Assembly (NCBI GenBank): GCA_900770345.1
Contig: CAAGKF010000073.1
Coordinates: forward strand, 529 to 64,528
DNA length: 64,000 nucleotides
Source of the DNA: Lachnospiraceae bacterium
Lineage (GTDB): Bacteria > Bacillota > Clostridia > Lachnospirales > Lachnospiraceae
Direction: 5' to 3'
Every line of letters begins with the position of its first letter. The first letter of the stretch is position 1. Positions 1 to 15,683 of the stretch are shown here, piece after piece. Position numbers and translations under genes: made by a program. A model generated the notes under the pieces. That model was not told where the DNA came from and made no database searches. It worked only from the letters and a program-made list of their open reading frames with translations.

Positions 1-2099
1 TTTTTCAGCCGGATCCTGATATATTCTCCTTTTATCTCCTTCAGGATCACCGTTTTTCCGTAAACAGGCACCCCATGACATGTATACATTTTTCCGCCTC
101 TGAAGGTTTCCCTGTTCCACACCAGAATGGTCTGCTTCTGTCCTTTTGCTCCGCGGATGTCCCAGGCTGTCACTGTCTGACCGGATACCGGCTCTTTCCT
201 TCCGAACTGAAACACCTCTGCCGGTTCTGCCTCTGTTCCTTCCGCCGCAAAGATTACAGAAAAGGTCATTCTGTCCTCCATTGCACATTCCTTCACCAGT
301 ACATAGGCTTCTGTTTTTTCATTATATCGTTTGGATATTATTCCTCTCTCCGTTTTCAACGGTTCCTGCGAAAATACATTAAGACGCACATCTCCGTTTT
401 TCAGGATCACTCTGCCCGCCTCTTCCCGCACCTGAACCTGATCATCCAGATGAAAATACTCCCGCAGCTGATGCTTTCCCGGGCAGATTATATCCTGCAC
501 CGTAAGCCATACTCCGACGTCCAGCACAAGTACCCTGCGAAGGATCATATAAGGTGTTCCGTCTCTCAAAATCCCGTGAAAAGGCATTTCCATATAGTGA
601 GCATCCTCCTGCTCCCGAAAATAATTTTTCAGATTTTCTCCGAAACCGGCATATGTCCAGGAACCGTCCGGTTCTCCGCCGGACTGCCCGTCGATCACGC
701 ACACATTATGGGCCTGAGGGCTTTTCAGAATGCAGCGCAGCGGCTCATCCTCCCGGTAAGAGTAGCGTCCGCTGTCTATAAGAAAAGGACGTCCTTTATG
801 ATACAGACACAGCTGTGTCTGATCTGCATGACCATGCCCGCTTCCCAGAGGCCCGTTGGTCATCCATGTAAAATCCGCAGTCTCCGTCCAGCTGTTCCGG
901 AGGTACAGATTCCCGCTGTCCTCACAGTACCAGCTGAGCTGCTCCGGAAGCATGGGCTCCAGAGCTTCATAGATCCGTATTCCGGGTGCTCCCAAAAGCC
1001 ACGCACTGGCCATATCCATATGTTCCCCGCCCGCGAAACGATAAACGCCGCCCTGATTCGAAAACAACTCAGCAAGCACCGCTGCCCTCACCATTACGTC
1101 TCTCGTATCTGTGACATCACTGTCGCACTGCGGCAGCTGCATGCGGGCCGGGTCTGAACTGTAAAGCACATGACGGCTCATGACGAGCACTGCTCTGACC
1201 AGCCACCCTTCTCCCTGCTTCCCGCTCTGCTCTGAGTCTTTTTTTCCGACGGCATATTCCGCGCAGGCTACCGGCCGTATTCCGGATTTTTCCGCCTGCA
1301 ACGCGAAAACCAGCAATCCGGCGCATGCATTCAGCACCTCCGCATGATACATAGCCGACTGTTCCCAGTGAGAACCGTCCTCCAGAATCTGAAGCTCCAG
1401 CTGTTCTTTCAGCTCCTTCCAGGCCCATTCCTCCAGGCCGCGTTCCGGAAGAAATTCCCTGAACCAGAGATAACCGGCGCAGACAGCGGCAGTCTGAAGT
1501 ATTCCCCAGTTGCTGAGAGTATATTTCCCGATATATCGCTTCCGCAGGTTTTCAAACTGCCGTCCCATATTTTCCAGTAGTCTTTCCGCTTCCCCACGAT
1601 CCATAAAGCCTGTTCCGATCAGATTGAGCAGCAGGCCGCACCAGTTAAAGCAGCGGATGCCGGTATCGATCGTCCTGGTGGCCTCTGTCCCCTGATCGGT
1701 GATGGGATTTTTCTCTGTCCAGTCAGAAAGATACCAGCGGAGCTTGTCAATGTAATCCGTCTTTCCCGTCAGAGCATACGCCTGCCACAGCTTGGGAAGA
1801 AAATCATGACGGTTCAGCATATATACCCACTCCGGATCACCGTTGGGACTGACTGTCCAGCTGTCCAGTTTCATGAAATAAGGCGTTCTGCAGGGCTCCA
1901 TATCCCATCTGTCCCGAAAGAAAAACGTCTGCTCCATCAGAAGCTCTGCCTGATGAAGCAGCATCTCCTTCTCCTGTCTGCAATATTTTTCTATATATCC
2001 GGAGATCTCCTGATATCCCAGAAAAGACAAGCGGAACTCCAGCCTGCTTTTCAATGCCGCAAAGCGTTCCTCCGGCTGTTCTTTTATCTCCTGTGCCAT
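1..2099 (-). CDS. Heparinase II/III-family polysaccharide lyase, 3' end truncated by the window edge
   Basis: Absent from the ORF track because its stop lies outside the window. Segments read manually in one minus frame from ATG 2099 (alternative 2114): WDMEPC..SPNGDPEWVYMLNRHDFL, GSGHGHADQTQLCLYHKGRPFLIDSGRYSY, and still open at position 3. Follows PTS IID as in streptococcal GAG clusters. Confidence 0.85.
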   Translation of the reverse strand, partial: MAQEIKEQPEERFAALKSRLEFRLSFLGYQEISGYIEKYCRQEKEMLLHQAELLMEQTFFFRDRWDMEPCRTPYFMKLDSWTVSPNGDPEWVYMLNRHDFLPKLWQAYALTGKTDYIDKLRWYLSDWTEKNPITDQGTEATRTIDTGIRCFNWCGLLLNLIGTGFMDRGEAERLLENMGRQFENLRKRYIGKYTLSNWGILQTAAVCAGYLWFREFLPERGLEEWAWKELKEQLELQILEDGSHWEQSAMYHAEVLNACAGLLVFALQAEKSGIRPVACAEYAVGKKDSEQSGKQGEGWLVRAVLVMSRHVLYSSDPARMQLPQCDSDVTDTRDVMVRAAVLAELFSNQGGVYRFAGGEHMDMASAWLLGAPGIRIYEALEPMLPEQLSWYCEDSGNLYLRNSWTETADFTWMTNGPLGSGHGHADQTQLCLYHKGRPFLIDSGRYSYREDEPLRCILKSPQAHNVCVIDGQSGGEPDGSWTYAGFGENLKNYFREQEDAHYMEMPFHGILRDGTPYMILRRVLVLDVGVWLTVQDIICPGKHQLREYFHLDDQVQVREEAGRVILKNGDVRLNVFSQEPLKTERGIISKRYNEKTEAYVLVKECAMEDRMTFSVIFAAEGTEAEPAEVFQFGRKEPVSGQTVTAWDIRGAKGQKQTILVWNRETFRGGKMYTCHGVPVYGKTVILKEIKGEYIRIRLK

Positions 2100-2173
2100 A
2101 CTTATTATTTTCATCTCCTTTGTCCCATCTCCTGTTTCCGTTTTTCCCGTTTATAATCAGATCTTACCAACGG

Positions 2174-2202
2174 AAAAAGCGGAGGCGCCTTTGCACCCCC
2201 GC
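2174..2202 (-). terminator. Intrinsic terminator between PTS IID and the lyase gene
   Basis: Minus strand GCGGGGGTGC-AAAG-GCGCCTCCGC (two G-U pairs) followed by TTTTT. Confidence 0.6.
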
Positions 2203-2208
2203 TCCGGA

Positions 2209-3018
2209 TTATGCGATCAAATGCAGTACGGATAACACAACTCCAAGGATAATGGTCAGTACCACCAGCTTGTAGGTGCTCCATTTCTTTACCTTGATCA
2301 GGTAGAAGATCAATCCTGTAAACAGCACCGGAAGCAGCTTCGGCGCAATGGCGTCCACCATATCCTGAATAGCCACGATTTTCTGCTGGTTATCCGGCAT
2401 ATTCGCCACATACTGGATCGGCGTTGTGATTTTTACAAAATTTACTGCCAGACCGGAAATGACGGTCACACCGATCATACTGGCGATATTGGATATCATT
2501 TCCATCTTCTCGCTTAAGGTTGCAATGATATTGGTACCCAGCTTGTAGCCCCAGAGTCCGGTCAGCACTTTTACAGCCAGAAGAATCGCGTTCATCGCCA
2601 CAAAGAACAGGACCGGCCCCATGATCATACCGTCCTGAGCCAGAGATGCGCCGATCGTCGCAAACAGAGGAGCCAGACAAAACTGAGCCAGGGAATCGCC
2701 GATACCGGCCAGAGGTCCCATCAATGCCATCTTAATGCTGCGGATCTCCTTGGCAGGAGTCTGATTTTCCAGCATTACCAGATGAAGGCTGGTGATAAAG
2801 GGCACAAAATGGATATTGGTGTTGAAGAATTCGATATTCTCCTTCAGTGCTGCCTGCAGCTGGTCATCATCATCCTTATACATCTTGCGCAGTGCCGGGT
2901 AAAGGATATTGGCATAGCCCAGTCCCTGATAGTTTCCGTAGTTAAAGCCGTTCTGCAGGAAATACGCACGAAGGCTTGTCTTGATATAATCACTCTTTTG
3001 CAGTCTGTTAGATGCCAT
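2209..3018 (-). CDS. PTS mannose/fructose/sorbose family IID component
   Basis: FNYGNYQGLGY, EFFNTN, SIKMALMGPLAGIGDS motifs. ATG 3018 overlaps the IIC stop (ORF track start TTG 3030). Confidence 0.93.
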   Translation of the reverse strand: MASNRLQKSDYIKTSLRAYFLQNGFNYGNYQGLGYANILYPALRKMYKDDDDQLQAALKENIEFFNTNIHFVPFITSLHLVMLENQTPAKEIRSIKMALMGPLAGIGDSLAQFCLAPLFATIGASLAQDGMIMGPVLFFVAMNAILLAVKVLTGLWGYKLGTNIIATLSEKMEMISNIASMIGVTVISGLAVNFVKITTPIQYVANMPDNQQKIVAIQDMVDAIAPKLLPVLFTGLIFYLIKVKKWSTYKLVVLTIILGVVLSVLHLIA

Positions 3019-3796
3019 CTTCAAATTCAACCTCCACTTCTTCTACCGAATTGCTTCCGCCCTTGCCTGCATGGAAGAATACCAGCAGCGCAATTGCTGT
3101 TCCAAGTACCGCTACCCCCATAACCGGAAGACTTAAGTATGCGATCGCGATATAACCAAGGAGTACAAAAGGAATCAGTTCCTTCTTTGCCATTACATTC
3201 AAGATCATGGCAAAGCCGATAGCCGGCAGCATCTTTCCTGCCACTCCCAGACCTGTGCTGAGCCATCCCGGGATAAAGGAGATCAGCTTCTGCAGTCCCT
3301 CAGAGCTGAAGGCTCCTCCGAAGCCGATCAGGAAGCCTACCGCCGCAAATACCCAGATGGTAGCATTGGCCGCAATACGGAAAGTTTTGAAATCCTTACG
3401 ATCCAGCGCCTTATAGGCTGTACCGGTAAGTGTAGTTGCAAATGTATAGGTAGCAGTGATAACAAACTGGAATGCCACCGCAAAGGGGAAAGATAATGCC
3501 AGAGCGGATCCTACATCAATACCGGAATCCTTCATTGTGATGGCAATGATGGTGCCCACAATTCCGGGGCCCATAGGGTTAGGCGGTACAGATCCTCCCT
3601 GAGATACGCCGAAGCCCATAAATGCCAGTTCACCTACAGCTCCCATTGCCAGGCCTGTGGGAAGATCTCCCAGGATAATACCCACGCCCGTTGCCATGAT
3701 CAGACAGCGGTTGGTATAAATACCGAACAGCATGCCTGCCAGACAGAATCCGCTCCAAAGACCGATTAACACACATTGAACTAAACTGATCGTCAC
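3008..3796 (-). CDS. PTS mannose/fructose/sorbose family IIC component
   Basis: Hydrophobic; GIILGDLPTGLAMGAVGEL, GGSVPPN, LPAIGFAMIL; GTG start with AGGAGGAG RBS. Confidence 0.93.
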   Translation of the reverse strand: MTISLVQCVLIGLWSGFCLAGMLFGIYTNRCLIMATGVGIILGDLPTGLAMGAVGELAFMGFGVSQGGSVPPNPMGPGIVGTIIAITMKDSGIDVGSALALSFPFAVAFQFVITATYTFATTLTGTAYKALDRKDFKTFRIAANATIWVFAAVGFLIGFGGAFSSEGLQKLISFIPGWLSTGLGVAGKMLPAIGFAMILNVMAKKELIPFVLLGYIAIAYLSLPVMGVAVLGTAIALLVFFHAGKGGSNSVEEVEVEFEDGI

Positions 3797-3809
3797 GACT
3801 GTCTCCTCC

Positions 3810-4301
3810 TTAATCTAAGTATTTGTTCAGATCTACCTTTGCGGCGCCGTCATCGCCGGACGCGGTAGTCTTAGTATTGAACACAATGCCGTACTTATCC
3901 CTGAGCTCCTTTAAAGCTGCCTTGTCCTCAGGTCCCAGGGCAATATATTTGCTGATCTCCTCTTTGCCGGGAGCACGATGGATATTTCCCACGTTGATCT
4001 CCTTTACGGGAACACCGCCCGCCACCAGCTTCAGAGCGTCCTCTGTAGTCTTGCACACAATGAAAATAGACTGCTTCGGTGATGCCTTCATGATCACATC
4101 GCAGGTGTGCTGCACAGAAAAGAAACGCATGGCGATGGATTTGGGCACAACTGCCTTCATCAGCGTCTGCTGCATGGGATCTTCACTGGCGGAATCGTTT
4201 GCCACAATCACCGTATTCACGCCCAGTGCCTTGATCCAAAGCTGTCCCTGTCCGTGGATCAGGCGTTCATCAATTCGAAAAGCTACAATATTTGGTACCA
4301 T
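3810..4301 (-). CDS. PTS mannose/fructose/sorbose family IIB component
   Basis: RIDERLIHGQ phospho-His motif; VANDS; INVGN. Confidence 0.95.
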   Translation of the reverse strand: MVPNIVAFRIDERLIHGQGQLWIKALGVNTVIVANDSASEDPMQQTLMKAVVPKSIAMRFFSVQHTCDVIMKASPKQSIFIVCKTTEDALKLVAGGVPVKEINVGNIHRAPGKEEISKYIALGPEDKAALKELRDKYGIVFNTKTTASGDDGAAKVDLNKYLD

Positions 4302-4349
4302 ACCATATCCTCCTGTTATTTATAATTATTTAAAAATTACTTTTATTGC

Positions 4350-5540
4350 TTACCAATACAGATTCCAGTCTCTGCGGAAACGCATCAGCGCTTCCATATA
4401 ATAATAATCTCCCCATATATTTCCTTCATCCACACCCTTGCCGGAATGCCAGGAATATACTCCGTGATAAAGGACAGGATTTCCCGGCTTTACTTCGCTG
4501 CCTGCATAATTTTCTATAAGAGAGCGAAGAATCCGATGCATCGCAAAACGGTAAACCGTTTTTTCCGGATCAACCTCCGGCAGATATTTCTCCATTTCAT
4601 GAATGCCGCAGACAGCCACAGCCGCTGCCGAAGAGTCGCGGGACTGACCGGAGCCGTCACTGAAGATCAGATCCCAGTAGCACACATCATCTTCCGGAAG
4701 ACGGTTTAAAAAGTAATTTGTCATCCCTTTAAAGAGATTGACGGAAACAGGATTGTGGTTTTCCCTGTAATTCAGCGGAATTCCGTAAACACCCCAGGCC
4801 TGCCCTCTGGCCCATGCAGAATCATCACTGTATCCCTGGCGTGTCACGCCCTTTACCGGATCTCCTGTTTCCGGATCAAAGTAAAAGGTATGAAAGGCGG
4901 ATGCATCATCCCGGATCACGTAATTGCAGGCTTTCTCATAATGACGCTCCGCAGCTGTCCGGTATTTTTGATCTCCGGTAACCTCAGAAGCCCAGTACAG
5001 AAGCGGAATATTCATAAGACAGTCAATGATCAGACGGTAATTATCCTTCGCTCCCAGCTCTCCCCAGGCCTGGATGAAGCCGTCCCTCTCTCTGAATCGT
5101 TCCATCAGCTTATCTGCAGCCAGAATGCCCGCTTTTCTGGCTTTTTCCGATCCTGTCAGTTTATAGCCTGCCACACAGGAAAGAGAATAGAGAAATCCCA
5201 GATCGTGATGGTCCAGCTCAATCCTCTTTTCCACTCTGTTTAAAAAGGAATCCACATTTTCTTCCGCTCTCTGTCTGAAAACCGGATCTCCGGTGTATTC
5301 ATAGCAAAGCCACAGCAGTCCCGTCCAGAATCCATCAGTCCACTCAATATTGTCGATCACTCCGTAAACCTGCTCTTTGGTGGCCGGAGTCGGAAATCTT
5401 TTGCCGAAGTAATCCAGATTTACCCTTGTCTGCTCCACCACATAATCCATCGCCTTTTCCACTTCTTCTTTGGTAAGAAGGGCCGTCTCCAGATATTTTT
5501 CACGGAAACGGATTGGTTCTACCTGAATCGTTTTTATCAT
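4350..5540 (-). CDS. ugl: Unsaturated glucuronyl hydrolase (GH88)
   Basis: WTDGFWTGLLW, DHHDLGFLY, IIDCLMN, WARGQAWG, DSSAAA, IWGDYYY motifs. Confidence 0.93.
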   Translation of the reverse strand: MIKTIQVEPIRFREKYLETALLTKEEVEKAMDYVVEQTRVNLDYFGKRFPTPATKEQVYGVIDNIEWTDGFWTGLLWLCYEYTGDPVFRQRAEENVDSFLNRVEKRIELDHHDLGFLYSLSCVAGYKLTGSEKARKAGILAADKLMERFRERDGFIQAWGELGAKDNYRLIIDCLMNIPLLYWASEVTGDQKYRTAAERHYEKACNYVIRDDASAFHTFYFDPETGDPVKGVTRQGYSDDSAWARGQAWGVYGIPLNYRENHNPVSVNLFKGMTNYFLNRLPEDDVCYWDLIFSDGSGQSRDSSAAAVAVCGIHEMEKYLPEVDPEKTVYRFAMHRILRSLIENYAGSEVKPGNPVLYHGVYSWHSGKGVDEGNIWGDYYYMEALMRFRRDWNLYW

Positions 5541-5565
5541 GATTATCTCCCCATTTTACTGAATC

Positions 5566-6000
5566 CTACAGTCCGCCTTCAAACTGCGGCTCTTCCTCAT
5601 CATTTCCCAGCTGATCAAAGTCCACAACACCATTTGCTCCTGCTGCGGCCGCCATCGATGCCAGATCATCCAGTCCGGCTGCCATTCTGGAAAATACAGC
5701 CTCTACCACCACCGGCATATTTGTTCCGGCGATCAGGCGGATGTGTTTTCCGCTCATTTCCTGCTTTAATGCCGCTGCCGTATTGAACGGTGTTCCTCCC
5801 ACCAAATCTGCCAGGATCAGGATCTCATTCCCTTCCAGAGATTCCACAGCGGCTGTCATAGCCTCCTTCAGATCTGCTGAGCTCTGTCCGGCCTCAAAGT
5901 CCACACATACCACCTGCTCAGGCTTTCCGGCTACCAGCTCCACAGCACTTAAAATTCCGCTTGGAAAATGACCGTGACCCGTAATAACAATTCCTACCAT
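5566..6000 (-). CDS. PTS mannose/fructose/sorbose family IIA component
   Basis: ITGHGHF phospho-His; DLVGGTPFN; GTNMP. Confidence 0.93.
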   Translation of the reverse strand: MVGIVITGHGHFPSGILSAVELVAGKPEQVVCVDFEAGQSSADLKEAMTAAVESLEGNEILILADLVGGTPFNTAAALKQEMSGKHIRLIAGTNMPVVVEAVFSRMAAGLDDLASMAAAAGANGVVDFDQLGNDEEEPQFEGGL

Positions 6001-6021
6001 ACCTGCTCTCCTTTTGTTTTT

Positions 6022-6037
6022 AGTAAACTGATTTACT
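6022..6037. promoter_or_regulatory. Palindromic operator just downstream of the GAG-operon promoter (LacI-family-like)
   Basis: AGTAAA-CTGA-TTTACT dyad lying between the -10 box and the RBS. Confidence 0.65.
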
Positions 6038-6046
6038 TACGAGGTG

Positions 6047-6075
6047 AGTATAGCTAATATGCCAAGAACTGTCAA
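6047..6075 (-). promoter_or_regulatory. SigA promoter of the GAG operon
   Basis: TTGACA(6075-6070)-N17-TATACT(6052-6047), with an AT-rich UP region upstream. Confidence 0.8.
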
Positions 6076-6215
6076 TGGTATTTTTTAAAAAAAGCTTAAT
6101 TTTGTTATATTTATATAATTTATCTTAATTTTATTGTGCACTATGTCTATTTTAATTGTGTGTCATTTATTGAATACGTATGAATTGTTCGTGTTGTATA
6201 TTCAATTCAAAATTC

Positions 6216-6312
6216 AGTAAACATCCACGGTTTACCAGGCTGTGGATCTGTTTACTTTAAAAATGTTTACTCATCATGTTTACTTTATCCGGTTTACTCC
6301 CTCCGTTTAACT
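6216..6312. repeat. Array of GTTTAC(T) motifs
   Basis: GTTTAC at 6230, 6250, 6265, 6278, 6292, variant GTTTAAC at 6305, inverted copy AGTAAAC at 6216. Confidence 0.7.
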
Positions 6313-6362
6313 CCTGCACACAGTGAAATGCCTGCATACTGAGGCTGCTCCCCCACAAAACT

Positions 6363-6405
6363 AAAAATGGAGAATGTACAGTTCAGGAAACCATACATTC
6401 TCCAT
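6363..6405 (-). terminator. Intrinsic terminator after ogt
   Basis: 12-bp inverted repeat ATGGAGAATGTA/TACATTCTCCAT followed by a T run on the minus strand. Confidence 0.7.
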
Positions 6406-6420
6406 CATTTTTCATAACGC
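6402..6420. repeat. Direct repeat copy B flanking the ogt cassette
   Basis: CCATCATTTTTCATAACGC; matches 7023-7039 except for two extra T. Confidence 0.7.
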
Positions 6421-6951
6421 TGTTCCTTTTGCCGGGATAAAAAATTTTCTCATATCATTTCCCTCAAGCCTCAGAAGCGCAGCTTTATTCTTTATTCCTC
6501 CGCCGTAACCTGTCAGATTTCCCTTTGCGCCTACAACCCTGTGGCAGGGAATGATGATACAAATGGGATTCCATCCCACTGCGCCCCCGACAGCCTGGGC
6601 AGACATTCGTTTTATTCCACGGCTTCGGGCAATGATTTTTGAAATATCATTGTACATCAAAGTCCCGCCGAAAGGGATCGTATTCATGACATTCACTACC
6701 TCCTGCCGAAAAGGAGTCAGCTCCTTTATTTTATATTCCGGAGTAAACTCCGGATCTCTTCCGCTGAAATAAATATCAAGCCACCTGACAGTCTCCTCAA
6801 AAACCGGCAGTTCCTTTTCTTCGCAGTCCGTTACATGTTTTGAAACATCTCTTGAACCTTCAAACCACAGACCGGTCAGATACCTGCCGTCGCTGTTCAT
6901 AATCATATTATCAAAACTGTCAGGCGTCCTGTATGTCCATTTATATGTCAT
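6412..6951 (-). CDS. ogt: Methylated-DNA--protein-cysteine S-methyltransferase
   Basis: MTYKWTYRTP start with ACAGGAG RBS; AQAVGGAVGWNP and IPCHRVV active site; own promoter. It is the C-terminal part of the 6412..7323 ORF. Confidence 0.92.
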   Translation of the reverse strand: MTYKWTYRTPDSFDNMIMNSDGRYLTGLWFEGSRDVSKHVTDCEEKELPVFEETVRWLDIYFSGRDPEFTPEYKIKELTPFRQEVVNVMNTIPFGGTLMYNDISKIIARSRGIKRMSAQAVGGAVGWNPICIIIPCHRVVGAKGNLTGYGGGIKNKAALLRLEGNDMRKFFIPAKGTAL

Positions 6952-6987
6952 GGGATCATCTCCTGTAAAAATTGCTTTTCTCTGTTC

Positions 6988-7016
6988 ATTATACACAGAA
7001 TCTGCCGAAAACTCAA
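6988..7016 (-). promoter_or_regulatory. SigA promoter of ogt
   Basis: TTGAGT(7016-7011)-N17-TATAAT(6993-6988). Confidence 0.7.
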
Positions 7017-7022
7017 CGGCCG

Positions 7023-7039
7023 CCATCATTTCATAACGC
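7023..7039. repeat. Direct repeat copy A flanking the ogt cassette
   Basis: CCATCATTTCATAACGC; partner at 6402-6420. Confidence 0.7.
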
Positions 7040-7042
7040 ATC

Positions 7043-7068
7043 TGTGATAGGATAGCATTTTCTACACA
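7043..7068. mobile_element. Putative attachment junction of a skin-like sigK-intervening element (element extends leftward)
   Basis: SigK similarity breaks right after GAAAATG (E-N codons, 7062-7056). Imperfect dyad TGTGATAG(7043-7050)/CTACACA(7062-7068) around the break. No recombinase in the window. Confidence 0.55.
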
Positions 7069-7323
7069 TCTGGCCGCATAGGTCGCCAGTCTGGAGCCTT
7101 TATCCGCGTTAAAGGTATTCACTGCCTTGATGAGGCCGATGGTCCCAACCGAAAGCAGATCCTCCATTTCGTAATCCGAGCCCTGATATTTTTTTACTAC
7201 ATGGGCCACCAGGCGCATATTATGCTCTACCAGCATATTTCTGGCCAGAAGGTCGCCCTCTTTGCAGCGTTCCAGATACTCCTTCTCTTCTCCTGCGGAC
7301 AATGGTTTGGGAAAAGTCTTCAA
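7056..7323 (-). CDS. sigK: 5' half of split sporulation sigma factor SigK (regions 1.2-2; spoIVCB-equivalent)
   Basis: MKTFPKPLS..ARNMLVEHNMRLVAHVVKKY..EDLLSVGTIGLIKAVNTF..KGSRLATYAARCVEN, then diverges from the expected EILM.LR. Regions 3-4 are absent. TTG start. Confidence 0.88.
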
Positions 7324-7326
7324 AGA

Positions 7327-7381
7327 AAGCCACCCTGCATCTTCTTAATTTCATTCTATGCCCGGGTGGCTTGACAGGTGC
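7327..7381 (-). promoter_or_regulatory. Mother-cell (SigE/SigK-type) promoter of sigK embedded in an RBS-covering hairpin
   Basis: -10 CATAGAAT (7360-7353) with GCAC 17 nt upstream; inverted repeat AAGCCACCC(7327-7335)/GGGTGGCTT(7364-7372). Confidence 0.55.
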
Positions 7382-7402
7382 TTTTACTATTTTTATGGCT
7401 AT

Positions 7403-9349
7403 TTAATACGAAACATTTTTCATAGCACCGAACATCTCCTTATTCATCTCCTTATCGATACTGTGATTGTATACCAGTGCCTCATAATCCGCCAGAAGCT
7501 TCCGGTAAGGCGACTCCCGGTCTTTGACCTGGTTCCAGTCAAGAAAGGTGCCTTGGCTGTCGATACAGCCTGCAAAATGAACCACCGGAAGCTGCCCTGA
7601 CATCTGCAGCAGAAAGCTGCTGTAGGGAGACTGATCCAGCCCCGCCCTTTCCAGCACCTGAGAGGAGAGATAAAAGGCACTGAGGCGGCCCAGATCCTGA
7701 GACGGCTGCTCATAGTTGGTCCAGATAAGGAAGGGTGTCTCATACCACACAAGGTGCTCCTCCGGAGATGTCTCATATCTGGTCTTTCCTGTGATCCCGT
7801 CAAAAAAACCGGCTTCCAGGCTGGGGAGATGGTCCCCGAACATAACGATCATAGTCGGCTCTTCGCAGCCCTCAAAATATTCCGTCAGATATTTAAAGGC
7901 CTCATCTGACTCCTTCATCAGAGACAGAAACTGATCAGCCTTGGGATACAGCCCCTCATAGCTGCCTGTCAGGCGGATCTTCTGCCTGAAATTGTCATAG
8001 GTGCCTTCATAGCCGCCATGGTTCTGCATAGTGACATTAAATATAAACAGTTTATCCTCCGGATGCTCCTTCTCCTCCACTGCCTGAATCAGTTTTTCAA
8101 AGTCTCCTCGGTCACTGACATAATGGCGCAGCAGGCTGCTGTCCTTATAATAGCTTTCATCCAGAAACCGGTCAAAGCCCATATTCTCATAGCAGGCCTT
8201 TCTGTTCCAGTTTTCTCCCGGATAAGGATGCATGGCAACCGCCTCGTATCCCTGGGCCTTCAGTGTGCTCACCAGAGAACCGGTCCCGGGACGGACATTA
8301 TAATTGTAGGCAATGGATCCCCAGGGAAGCATCACCATGGAATCCCCCATAAGGAACTCAAACTCCGTATTGCTGGTCATGGCTCCGAATACGGGAACAC
8401 AGAGTTTTCCCCTTACCGTATTTTTCCGGAGGCTGCTGATAAAAGGAAAATATTCCTCGTTGGTCTCAAATTCACCGGCCACCCGGATATCAGCCAGGCT
8501 CTCATTCATAATACAGATCAAATTGACCGGCCGGACAGAAGCGGCGGATGCTGAGGAAGACTCCGCCCCGGAAGCTTCTTTCTCCTTCTGAGCCGGTTCA
8601 TCTTTAACTCCCTGGAAGCTTTCGTATTCTCCGCTTTCCAGCTGCCCGCAGATCCCCTGTACCAGCTCCCGGCTGTAGTTCTCCGGCGGAAGCTTCACCG
8701 CATAAGGCAGAGAAACAGCCGTAGCCAGTACACAGCCGTACTCGCGATAGCTTTCATTTACCGCCCACATTTTGACAGAAAGCCCCATTCCGGGAAGGAT
8801 CAGACCGAAAAATACCAGTCCGAAAACAGAAGCTGCCCCCAGGCTCCCCGCTCCAAAAAGAAGCCGCTTCCGAAGTCCCGTCACCCTGACCGGAAAAAAC
8901 CAGCACAGCACATTCAAGGCAGTAAGCCCCAGAACAGACATTCCCATGGCAAAGGACAGATAGAAGCTGTAATTGCCTGACACAGTCATCGCCGTCTTCA
9001 CAGCCAGTACATCCCAGAACATGGCCGGACGTTCCCTGAAAGACACCACAAAGGTTTCCGCAAAGGCAAATAAAAGCAGGGAAACCGACACTGCCGGAAC
9101 CGCTGCCCTTGTCCTGCCGCAGGCAGCAAAAACCAGAAGATAGAGGACGTAGATCCAGGCCACATTCAAAACTGCCAGTTTCCCGCTTATAGCTCCCAGA
9201 TTTCCTGTCACAAACTCTCCCAGGATATAGGAGCAGACCGCCGCCGCAAGCAGCTGAGCCATTCCCGTTCCAATTTCCCCGTATGTTCCTTTTTCCCTAT
9301 TTCTGACATTCTTTTCGAACATATTTCCATCCCTTTTCTTTCGTATCAC
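7403..9349 (-). CDS. LTA synthase-family / sulfatase-like membrane protein
   Basis: N-terminal TM helices; NLICIMNES, GAMTSNTEFEFL, HPYPGENWNR, TMQNHGGY, FGDHLP. Start uncertain (GTG 9349 or a later ATG). Confidence 0.85.
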   Translation of the reverse strand: MIRKKRDGNMFEKNVRNREKGTYGEIGTGMAQLLAAAVCSYILGEFVTGNLGAISGKLAVLNVAWIYVLYLLVFAACGRTRAAVPAVSVSLLLFAFAETFVVSFRERPAMFWDVLAVKTAMTVSGNYSFYLSFAMGMSVLGLTALNVLCWFFPVRVTGLRKRLLFGAGSLGAASVFGLVFFGLILPGMGLSVKMWAVNESYREYGCVLATAVSLPYAVKLPPENYSRELVQGICGQLESGEYESFQGVKDEPAQKEKEASGAESSSASAASVRPVNLICIMNESLADIRVAGEFETNEEYFPFISSLRKNTVRGKLCVPVFGAMTSNTEFEFLMGDSMVMLPWGSIAYNYNVRPGTGSLVSTLKAQGYEAVAMHPYPGENWNRKACYENMGFDRFLDESYYKDSSLLRHYVSDRGDFEKLIQAVEEKEHPEDKLFIFNVTMQNHGGYEGTYDNFRQKIRLTGSYEGLYPKADQFLSLMKESDEAFKYLTEYFEGCEEPTMIVMFGDHLPSLEAGFFDGITGKTRYETSPEEHLVWYETPFLIWTNYEQPSQDLGRLSAFYLSSQVLERAGLDQSPYSSFLLQMSGQLPVVHFAGCIDSQGTFLDWNQVKDRESPYRKLLADYEALVYNHSIDKEMNKEMFGAMKNVSY

Positions 9350-14963: not shown

Positions 14964-15683
14964 TACCGCACTGCTCTCCTCCTCCCACGCCAAACTGCCT
15001 GTCTCAATTCCAACGATCTTTCCGTCTACAATGCGAATTCTTCTGTCGGCATAGGAAGCCAGATGATCATCATGAGTAACCATGACCAGAGTCTGCTGCT
15101 GTTCCTTTACGATTCGCTGCATCAGACGCAGCACCTCCATGGTTGTTCTGGAATCCAGATTCCCCGTGGGTTCGTCGGCAAAGATGATCTGAGGATTCAC
15201 CACCAGAGCTCTGGCGATTCCCACTCTCTGCTGCTGGCCGCCGGACATCTGATTCGGCATGTGTTTTTCCTGATCCTCCACACCCACCAGCTTCATAAAC
15301 TTTCTGGCCCGCTTCAGCCGTTCCGCCCGGGGAATCCCCCTGAAAGACAGAGGCAGAGCCACATTCTCCACCGCATTCATGGTATTTAACAGGTTATAGG
15401 ACTGAAATATAAATCCAATCTTCTCTCTGCGGAACGCAACCAGCTGCTTTTCCGTCATTTTTTCTATATGGACCTTTCCGATCACGATCTCGCCTCTGGT
15501 AGGCTTCTCCAGACCGGCCATCATATTTAACAATGTTGATTTTCCCGAACCGGAAGTACCCACAATTGCCACAAACTCTCCCTTATACAGTTCAAAATCA
15601 ACACCATTTAAAGCTTTGACCTTTGTCTCACCCACGCGGTATATCTTATAAAGATTCTTTACCTGTATAACTGTCTCCGACAT
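14898..15683 (-). CDS. ABC transporter ATP-binding protein (LolD/MacB type)
   Basis: GTSGSGKST, MSGGQQQRV, FADEPTGNLD, MVTHD. Confidence 0.95.
   Translation of the reverse strand: MSETVIQVKNLYKIYRVGETKVKALNGVDFELYKGEFVAIVGTSGSGKSTLLNMMAGLEKPTRGEIVIGKVHIEKMTEKQLVAFRREKIGFIFQSYNLLNTMNAVENVALPLSFRGIPRAERLKRARKFMKLVGVEDQEKHMPNQMSGGQQQRVGIARALVVNPQIIFADEPTGNLDSRTTMEVLRLMQRIVKEQQQTLVMVTHDDHLASYADRRIRIVDGKIVGIETGSLAWEEESSAVQPDGKQPNGKQPDGKQPDGKQ

Follow-up and report, generated by a model that had tools for sequence, protein, structure and literature searches.

The window analyzed here is a 64,000-nucleotide stretch of a Lachnospiraceae genome (C73:529-64528 of the 404-contig assembly G000), and on its minus strand it carries the 5' half of sigK (7056..7323). 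The open reading frame that begins with a TTG codon at 7323 has its best match in the SigK models (TIGR02846, E 1.8e-43). Residues 1-90 comprise regions 1.2-2.4 with no pro-sequence, and the similarity to SigK ends at A-R-C-V-E-N. A promoter of the mother-cell type, AC-N17-CATAGAAT, lies on the host side of the gene (7353..7381, minus strand, with the -10 element at 7360-7353) and is similar to the sigmaK promoter that PMC3789822 describes for sigK of C. difficile. Promoter, ribosome-binding site and start are preserved ahead of intact sigK in all seven relatives examined, and these seven genes have the identical TTG start and no upstream frame for a pro-peptide. The first-pass annotation had described a clean N-terminal half of SigK, with these three signals in place, whose match stops at ...ARCVEN, and had placed the break at the site interrupted by the skin element of B. 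subtilis. All of this was upheld: the break falls at the core AAATG (7060-7056), in the same codons as that of B. subtilis skin according to the attB sequences in the supplements of PMC6957869 and PMC10745906.

Two marks of the pro-sigmaK processing system (SpoIVFB/BofA) are missing here: SigK has no pro-sequence, and a search of the assembly for BofA found none. As the intact sigK genes of relatives also lack the pro-sequence, the element is not needed as a substitute for pro-peptide control.

On the element side of the att core (7056..7060, minus strand) lies the attL arm (7031..7055, minus strand), which matches at 21 of 25 bases the consensus for the recombinase family, defined here as the best 80 of 569 relatives in GTDB genomes. 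The imperfect dyad that had been noted around the break, centered on the AA dinucleotide of the core, is weak at this end alone, where no center tested pairs more than 10 of 30 positions. It becomes a strong inverted repeat around that dinucleotide when the two ends of the element are set side by side, and 11 of the 12 arm positions are then paired. No recombinase or phage gene is found inside this end (window 1-7055), as had been reported.

The 3' half of sigK was located by searching the whole assembly with the SigK model. It lies on a second contig (C284:13204-12831), immediately behind a second copy of the AAATG core (attR, C284:13209-13205), and is followed by galE. Adjoining it is a gene for a large serine recombinase of 555-563 aa (C284 14871 or 14895-13204, the start being given two ways), the stop codon of which lies on the core. 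The protein has resolvase, recombinase and zinc ribbon domains (PF00239, PF07508 and PF13408), and its YSRKS motif and zinc-ribbon cysteines are invariant columns of the alignment. Of the three fates previously considered for the enzyme (a location at the far end, action in trans, or loss), the first is therefore the correct one. The two contigs share 222 bp (98.6%, 3 mismatches), at the end of C284 and the start of C73, within a lacI-type gene, and this overlap is bridged by an independent contig (L102; 97.7% over 7.8 kb). The closed element measures 12,465 bp; its excision would yield a circle of that size, and the sigK halves joined at the core form an in-frame gene of 213 aa. There is no full-length sigK elsewhere in the assembly, the full-length match on C218 being sigE, and a further sequence on C164 that fits the attR motif was rejected, being a ribosome-binding site with a start codon. 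When metagenomes were scanned with the terminal 22 bases of the 5' half, one contig was returned, which carries another organism's intact sigK. None of the genes of the closed element is a phage structural, replication or lysis gene, nor is any relaxase or transfer gene present in the 12,465 bp. With the core repeated at the other end and the halves rejoining in frame, the proposal that the window holds one att end of an element is borne out, and the att-bounded element is almost certainly real.

The empty-site comparison was made with relatives from the genus, rather than with conspecific strains. Among 24 such genomes, sigK is intact in 21, split in one and not found in two, and the order sulfatase-sigK-galE, which is identical in the host, is kept wherever both flanks could be seen. 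The one split genome (G006) is interrupted at the same site by a 5.6-kb element with GH3 cargo. Its recombinase is 60% and its sigK 3' half 70% identical to those of the host, identities that suggest independent acquisition of the two elements; the recombinase tree was run in quick mode and is not part of this argument.

If the integration is genuine, the element might nevertheless be stranded, i.e., no longer excisable and kept for its cargo by a host that does not sporulate. In the attR arm, 17 of 25 bases agree with the consensus, as against a family median of 21, and only 4 of the 44 distinct family arms are this low. The inner 13 bases of the attR arm are nearly intact (12/13), and its outer motif is degenerate (3/8), which could lower excision. 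On the other side, four other arms of the family lack the outer motif to the same degree. Not only sigK but also spoIIID and, apparently, sigG are interrupted, and sigF and the 5' half of sigG were not found in the assembly (96% complete, with a contamination score of 7%), in which spo0A, spoIVA and sigE are present. The missing sigF, however, is part of an absent 11-kb block with valS, a folC-like gene, spoIIAA-spoIIAB-sigF and spoVAA/AB that is present in four relatives, and the loss of valS and neighboring genes along with sigF looks like an assembly gap. The genome's sole close copy of the GH88 locus lies in the element, a further point in favor of stranding. Against a stranded element, no stops or frameshifts occur in either sigK half, the promoter, the recombinase or the small gene described below, the sigK halves are up to 93% identical to intact relatives, and the element in spoIIID also closes in frame. 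A stranded element is therefore unlikely, and the sigK element is probably still excised in this host.

The element contains a 67-codon open reading frame that diverges from the recombinase gene (C284:15099-15302, plus strand, promoter at 14981-15008). With an iterated profile, homologues were detected in 26 of the 80 recombinase loci and additionally in G006, G028 and G038. Within the fetched DNA, 13 of the 80 loci form closed elements (3.6-9.8 kb); the small ORF is present in all 13, and no other gene besides the recombinase recurs in all of them. When the profile was searched alone, it matched in 10 of 300 family genomes, two of the matches being repeats of loci in the training alignment, and in 10 of 10 cases a sigK 5' half lay within 3 kb. 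In the genus, the ORF occurs in 2 of 37 genomes, both with split sigK (the state of sigK was examined in part of the 37). Single changes among the homologues show a coding-type bias (597 synonymous versus 467 non-synonymous). The predicted protein is basic (pI 9.8; family median 9.2) and is modeled confidently as a two-helix hairpin (pLDDT 90), a shape too plain for a fold to be assigned. No informative match was found in Pfam, NCBIfam, PHROGs, PDB sequences or Foldseek/PDB; three unnamed Bacillota clusters in the ESM Atlas match at 0.89-0.90, and there is one weak phage match. As no curated family, structure or fold matches the protein, its role is argued from context.

The pattern ATA-N15-18-CATA lies upstream of 19 of 29 copies of the small ORF, as against 3.2% of random windows, and in 17 of those 19 the spacer contains the motif RRACAR; the pattern was picked post hoc from these sequences, and the loci are related rather than independent. 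The conserved spacer motif GGACAA may be a SpoIIID site, by the B. subtilis consensus. ATA-N16-CATA is the sigmaE pattern in PMC3789822, and CD1234 of C. difficile is described in PMC5025042 as sigmaE- and SpoIIID-dependent. The SpoIIID box of the C. difficile type described there is found just downstream of the -10 element here, not upstream as for CD1234, and the promoter lies 90 nt upstream of the ORF, compared with about 24 nt in most relatives.

The codon found 5-7 bases behind the Shine-Dalgarno sequence is ATC in 16 of the 29 copies, ATT in five, ATA in one and ATG, GTG or CTG in five; of the remaining two, one has GTG at 10 bases and one was not assigned. As starts were chosen by their Shine-Dalgarno match, this tally is partly circular. 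Databases place the start at an in-frame GTG three codons earlier, which coincides with the end of the Shine-Dalgarno sequence; in L059, however, a stop comes after that GTG, and in L015 the GTG lies in another frame. A non-ATG start, apparently ATC or ATT, is thus rather likely, and the small ORF itself is likely to encode the directionality factor of the recombinase.

The element might instead be excised without the small ORF acting in this way; i.e., the ORF could be a regulator or a mobilization accessory, or excision could be leaky and extend beyond the mother cell. No likeness of the protein in sequence or fold to a known factor was found, directionality factors are diverse according to PMC5025042, and the yin element was found excised at all time points in the data described in PMC10747680. 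The size of the protein, its basic pI, its strict co-occurrence with the recombinase and a split sigK, and its sigmaE-like promoter speak against these possibilities, as does the fact that no other gene is found in all closed elements, and we regard them as improbable.

The mechanism proposed for a complete, phage-free, skin-type element in the sole sigK gene, excised with the aid of the small ORF, would run as follows; as a whole, this account has good probability. In growing cells the recombinase alone would be unable to recombine attL with attR. The element would therefore stay in place, and its cargo would be read from sigma70-type promoters and provide uptake and cleavage of glycosaminoglycan disaccharides, DNA repair and efflux. 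After septation, sigmaE, probably with SpoIIID, would transcribe the 67-aa ORF in the mother cell; the weak ATC start behind a strong Shine-Dalgarno sequence would keep the product scarce. As a directionality factor, this protein would lead the recombinase to cut at the AA of the core, whereupon the element would leave as a circle and the rejoined gene would give a SigK that lacks a pro-sequence and is directly active. The spore would retain the element. That excision would occur during sporulation is suggested by C. difficile and B. subtilis. Between hosts, the element would move by means of its own recombinase and swap cargo freely.

The cargo in the window lies on the minus strand. Nearest the break is a gene for an Ogt-type methylated-DNA-protein-cysteine methyltransferase (6412..6951, 179 aa), which has its own ribosome-binding site, an ATG at 6951 and, upstream but within the element, a sigma70-type promoter-like site (6988..7016, 10/12); a terminator-like stem follows it (6406-6366). 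The sugar operon begins with a near-consensus sigma70 promoter (6047..6075, 11/12). These sites were identified by consensus match only, with eight sites found against 3.6 expected in shuffled sequence. The operon encodes a mannose-family PTS EIIA (5566..6000), a GH88 unsaturated glucuronyl hydrolase (4350..5540), the PTS components EIIB (3810-4301), EIIC (3008-3796) and EIID (2209-3030), which together occupy 2209..4301, and a heparinase II/III-like lyase of 705 aa that ends just beyond the window (1..2114). Beyond the window, the element continues with a LacI regulator that spans the C73/C284 overlap, a MATE gene (C284 ~17300-15897) and a cytidylate-kinase-like gene (C284 15900-15322). The order EIIA, GH88, EIIB-D, lyase, LacI is shared by all seven genus loci fetched, with 46-92% identity, and GH88 is matched at 75-80% in 15 of 36 other genus genomes; at that threshold, the only copy in the host genome is the one in the element. 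The same gene classes (PTS, unsaturated glucuronyl hydrolase and lyase) make up the streptococcal glycosaminoglycan cluster described in PMC6837340, the PTS of which imports the unsaturated hyaluronan disaccharide. Unlike that cluster, the element contains no isomerase or reductase genes; the genome does have a KduI-family gene, outside the element. By this analogy, the substrate of the cargo may be a disaccharide of the glycosaminoglycan type.

The frame of the sigK 5' half stays open past the break, which the first-pass annotation had overlooked, and runs into ogt to give a read-through of 303 codons (window 6412-7323). This single frame, which links sigma region 2 to a whole Ogt protein, could be taken as a selected 303-aa fusion and the point of the arrangement. 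It is best seen as chance, since the other attL sites caught (11 locus records, some of them duplicates) read through just 9-44 codons; moreover, ogt has its own ribosome-binding site, ATG and promoter-like site, an in-frame, stop-free gap of 35 codons has a chance of about 6% by our own arithmetic, and the ogt copy in L102 is partial. A selected fusion is accordingly highly improbable. An artifact of assembly or binning, in which the halves stem from separate strains or were joined chimerically, is scarcely credible despite the 404 contigs, the contamination score and the three overlap mismatches, given family-typical att arms at both ends, host flanks ordered as in relatives and an independent contig that spans the overlap.

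The same contig illustrates how the cargo of the sigK element may travel. In L102 (7929-15819), 7.8 kb of this cargo lie, at 97.7% identity, directly behind another recombinase of the family (72%). The recombinase end, the att site and the start of ogt are gone at a short shared sequence. The contig is labeled Ca. Caccovicinus, a different genus, and has no sigK half; however it was binned, it shows exchange of cargo between elements. The cargo was not found on plasmids in PLSDB, where the best cover was 7%.

Similar mobility is seen across the recombinase family. The hosts of the best 80 of 569 relatives belong to the Lachnospiraceae, Oscillospiraceae, Christensenellaceae and Holdemania. In 75 of these 80 loci a sigK 3' half that starts at the same residue lies downstream, and the att arm is strongly conserved. 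Recombinases that are 88-92% alike are found in hosts with sigK halves only 40-55% alike (e.g., 92% for the recombinases and 46% for the sigK halves of a Holdemania and an Acetatifactor locus), and such near-identity of the recombinases alongside divergent host sigK points to recent transfer. The cargo of the closed elements varies and, in a scan of 49 selected proteins, includes ABC transporters, reductases, AAA proteins and a pilin-like gene; one related closed element (L094) has a MobA/MobL gene. A few close relatives lie on IMG/VR contigs that end at a sigK 3' half, so phage-borne members of the family may exist.

Several further loci were observed in the course of this survey. A sigK element of the same kind at L016:5990-10012 (G028) carries a polyamine (spermidine) synthesis operon. 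At L017 (G038:C63) and L188 the same sigK site is occupied, with the recombinase reversed beside the 5' half and a homologue of the small ORF present. At L037:11818, L101:5046 and L049, recombinases of the family have an att arm followed by DNA other than sigK, or no arm was found; these may be secondary integration sites. Viral loci L199-L232 (recombinase identity 36-37%; e.g., L199:5003-5269 and 5992-7575) were considered as skins of the B. subtilis or C. difficile type and rejected: the L199-type loci are low in GC, prophage-like and without sigK nearby, and so offer no comparison with Skr or CD1234. Their target gene is not sigK. They contain a remotely similar small ORF (E about 0.04 with the profile), which in L199 is preceded by the same ATA-GGACAA-...-CATA promoter.

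Two other sporulation genes of the host genome were found in pieces. The gene spoIIID is split by a closed element of 3,951 bp with the core GTACAT (G000:C189:10203-11483 and C191:1-3063; L178, L177), which has its own serine recombinase and Schlafen/AlbA-domain cargo; the halves rejoin in frame to encode 92 aa. This element has a distinct 73-aa ORF with a conserved promoter of the CATAG(T/A) type (mother-cell type). Of 300 family genomes, 17 have this ORF, and in one of these it lies close to a spoIIID half, by a weak match. In addition, a sigG 3' half lies directly behind a third large serine recombinase (G000:C119:10852-12845, L176), which is 52% identical to that of a closed 2.5-kb sigG element with the same break in G179 (L175); sigG is thus probably interrupted in this genome as well. 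In G089 (L174), a sigG 3' half has no adjoining recombinase.

If the factor of the sigK element needs SpoIIID, as in C. difficile, the spoIIID and sigK excisions would occur in series. The combined picture, in which mobile phage-free skins, factors throttled by ATC or ATT starts, serial excision from spoIIID and then sigK, and a third excision from sigG all hold, is tentative and has the odds against it. Were it true, sigmaE would trigger excision of the 3.95-kb spoIIID element first, and the rebuilt SpoIIID would then activate the sigK element's factor; two DNA excisions would thus replace pro-sigmaK processing as the late mother-cell timer. The third element would have to leave sigG in the forespore, and widespread, recently mobile skins would ferry metabolic cargo between genera of gut Clostridia.

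The host adds one more case to the well-known skin elements, and interruption of sigK is textbook material. One of the nearest known counterparts of the element is skinCd of C. difficile 630 (recombinase CD1231, directionality factor CD1234), which is described in PMC5025042 as similar in size (14.6 kb), with the recombinase directly upstream of the 3' part of sigK, a SigK without a pro-sequence and a small gene inside the element under a sigmaE-type promoter. In contrast, skinCd is prophage-like and occupies a different site in sigK (PMC5025042, PMC3442830), and CD1234, compared by its description, is acidic (72 aa, pI 5.5), whereas the candidate factor is basic (67 aa, pI 9.8). The skin of B. 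subtilis 168 (SpoIVCA, Skr) interrupts the same E-N-E codons, its core AATGA shares four bases with AAATG, and a long inverted repeat likewise spans attP (supplements of PMC6957869 and PMC10745906). That skin, however, is a 48-kb defective prophage with unrelated element-side arms, its recombinase gene adjoins the 5' fragment and points the other way, and the SigK has a pro-sequence; Skr overlaps the start of the recombinase gene, whereas the candidate factor is a separate, divergent gene. Variable cargo without phage genes is likewise a feature of two elements of B. cereus, gin in gerE (GirC/GirX) and the 22-kb sigK island of biovar anthracis, and their small directionality factor is unannotated in some genomes, as described in PMC5595907 and PMC10745906. 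They occupy another target gene or site, and the cargo of the B. cereus sigK island consists of restriction-modification and DNA-metabolism genes, not a sugar utilization locus. A survey of 15 Firmicutes genomes (bioRxiv 10.1101/2022.02.25.481979) describes skins that range from 2.6 to 48 kb and usually have the recombinase immediately ahead of the 3' fragment, and a split spoIIID in Ruminiclostridium cellulolyticum, which also appears in its skin-figure legend. In the survey's account only the recombinase is common to all its elements, whereas the family described here has a second, small common gene. Openly searchable literature yielded nothing on this family under sigG-intervening elements, gut gene-intervening elements or non-canonical factor starts.

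The new parts are a well-supported candidate directionality factor, cargo for glycan use that is mobile, and perhaps a cascade of excisions. Homology is a poor guide to directionality factors, and the small ORF provides a concrete candidate for a large recombinase family that uses a single conserved site in many spore formers of the gut. The cargo is evidence that sigK, as a safe-harbor site, carries and exchanges genes for the utilization of host glycans between gut genera. With spoIIID and sigK, and probably sigG, interrupted in one genome, the order of developmental DNA rearrangements becomes testable.
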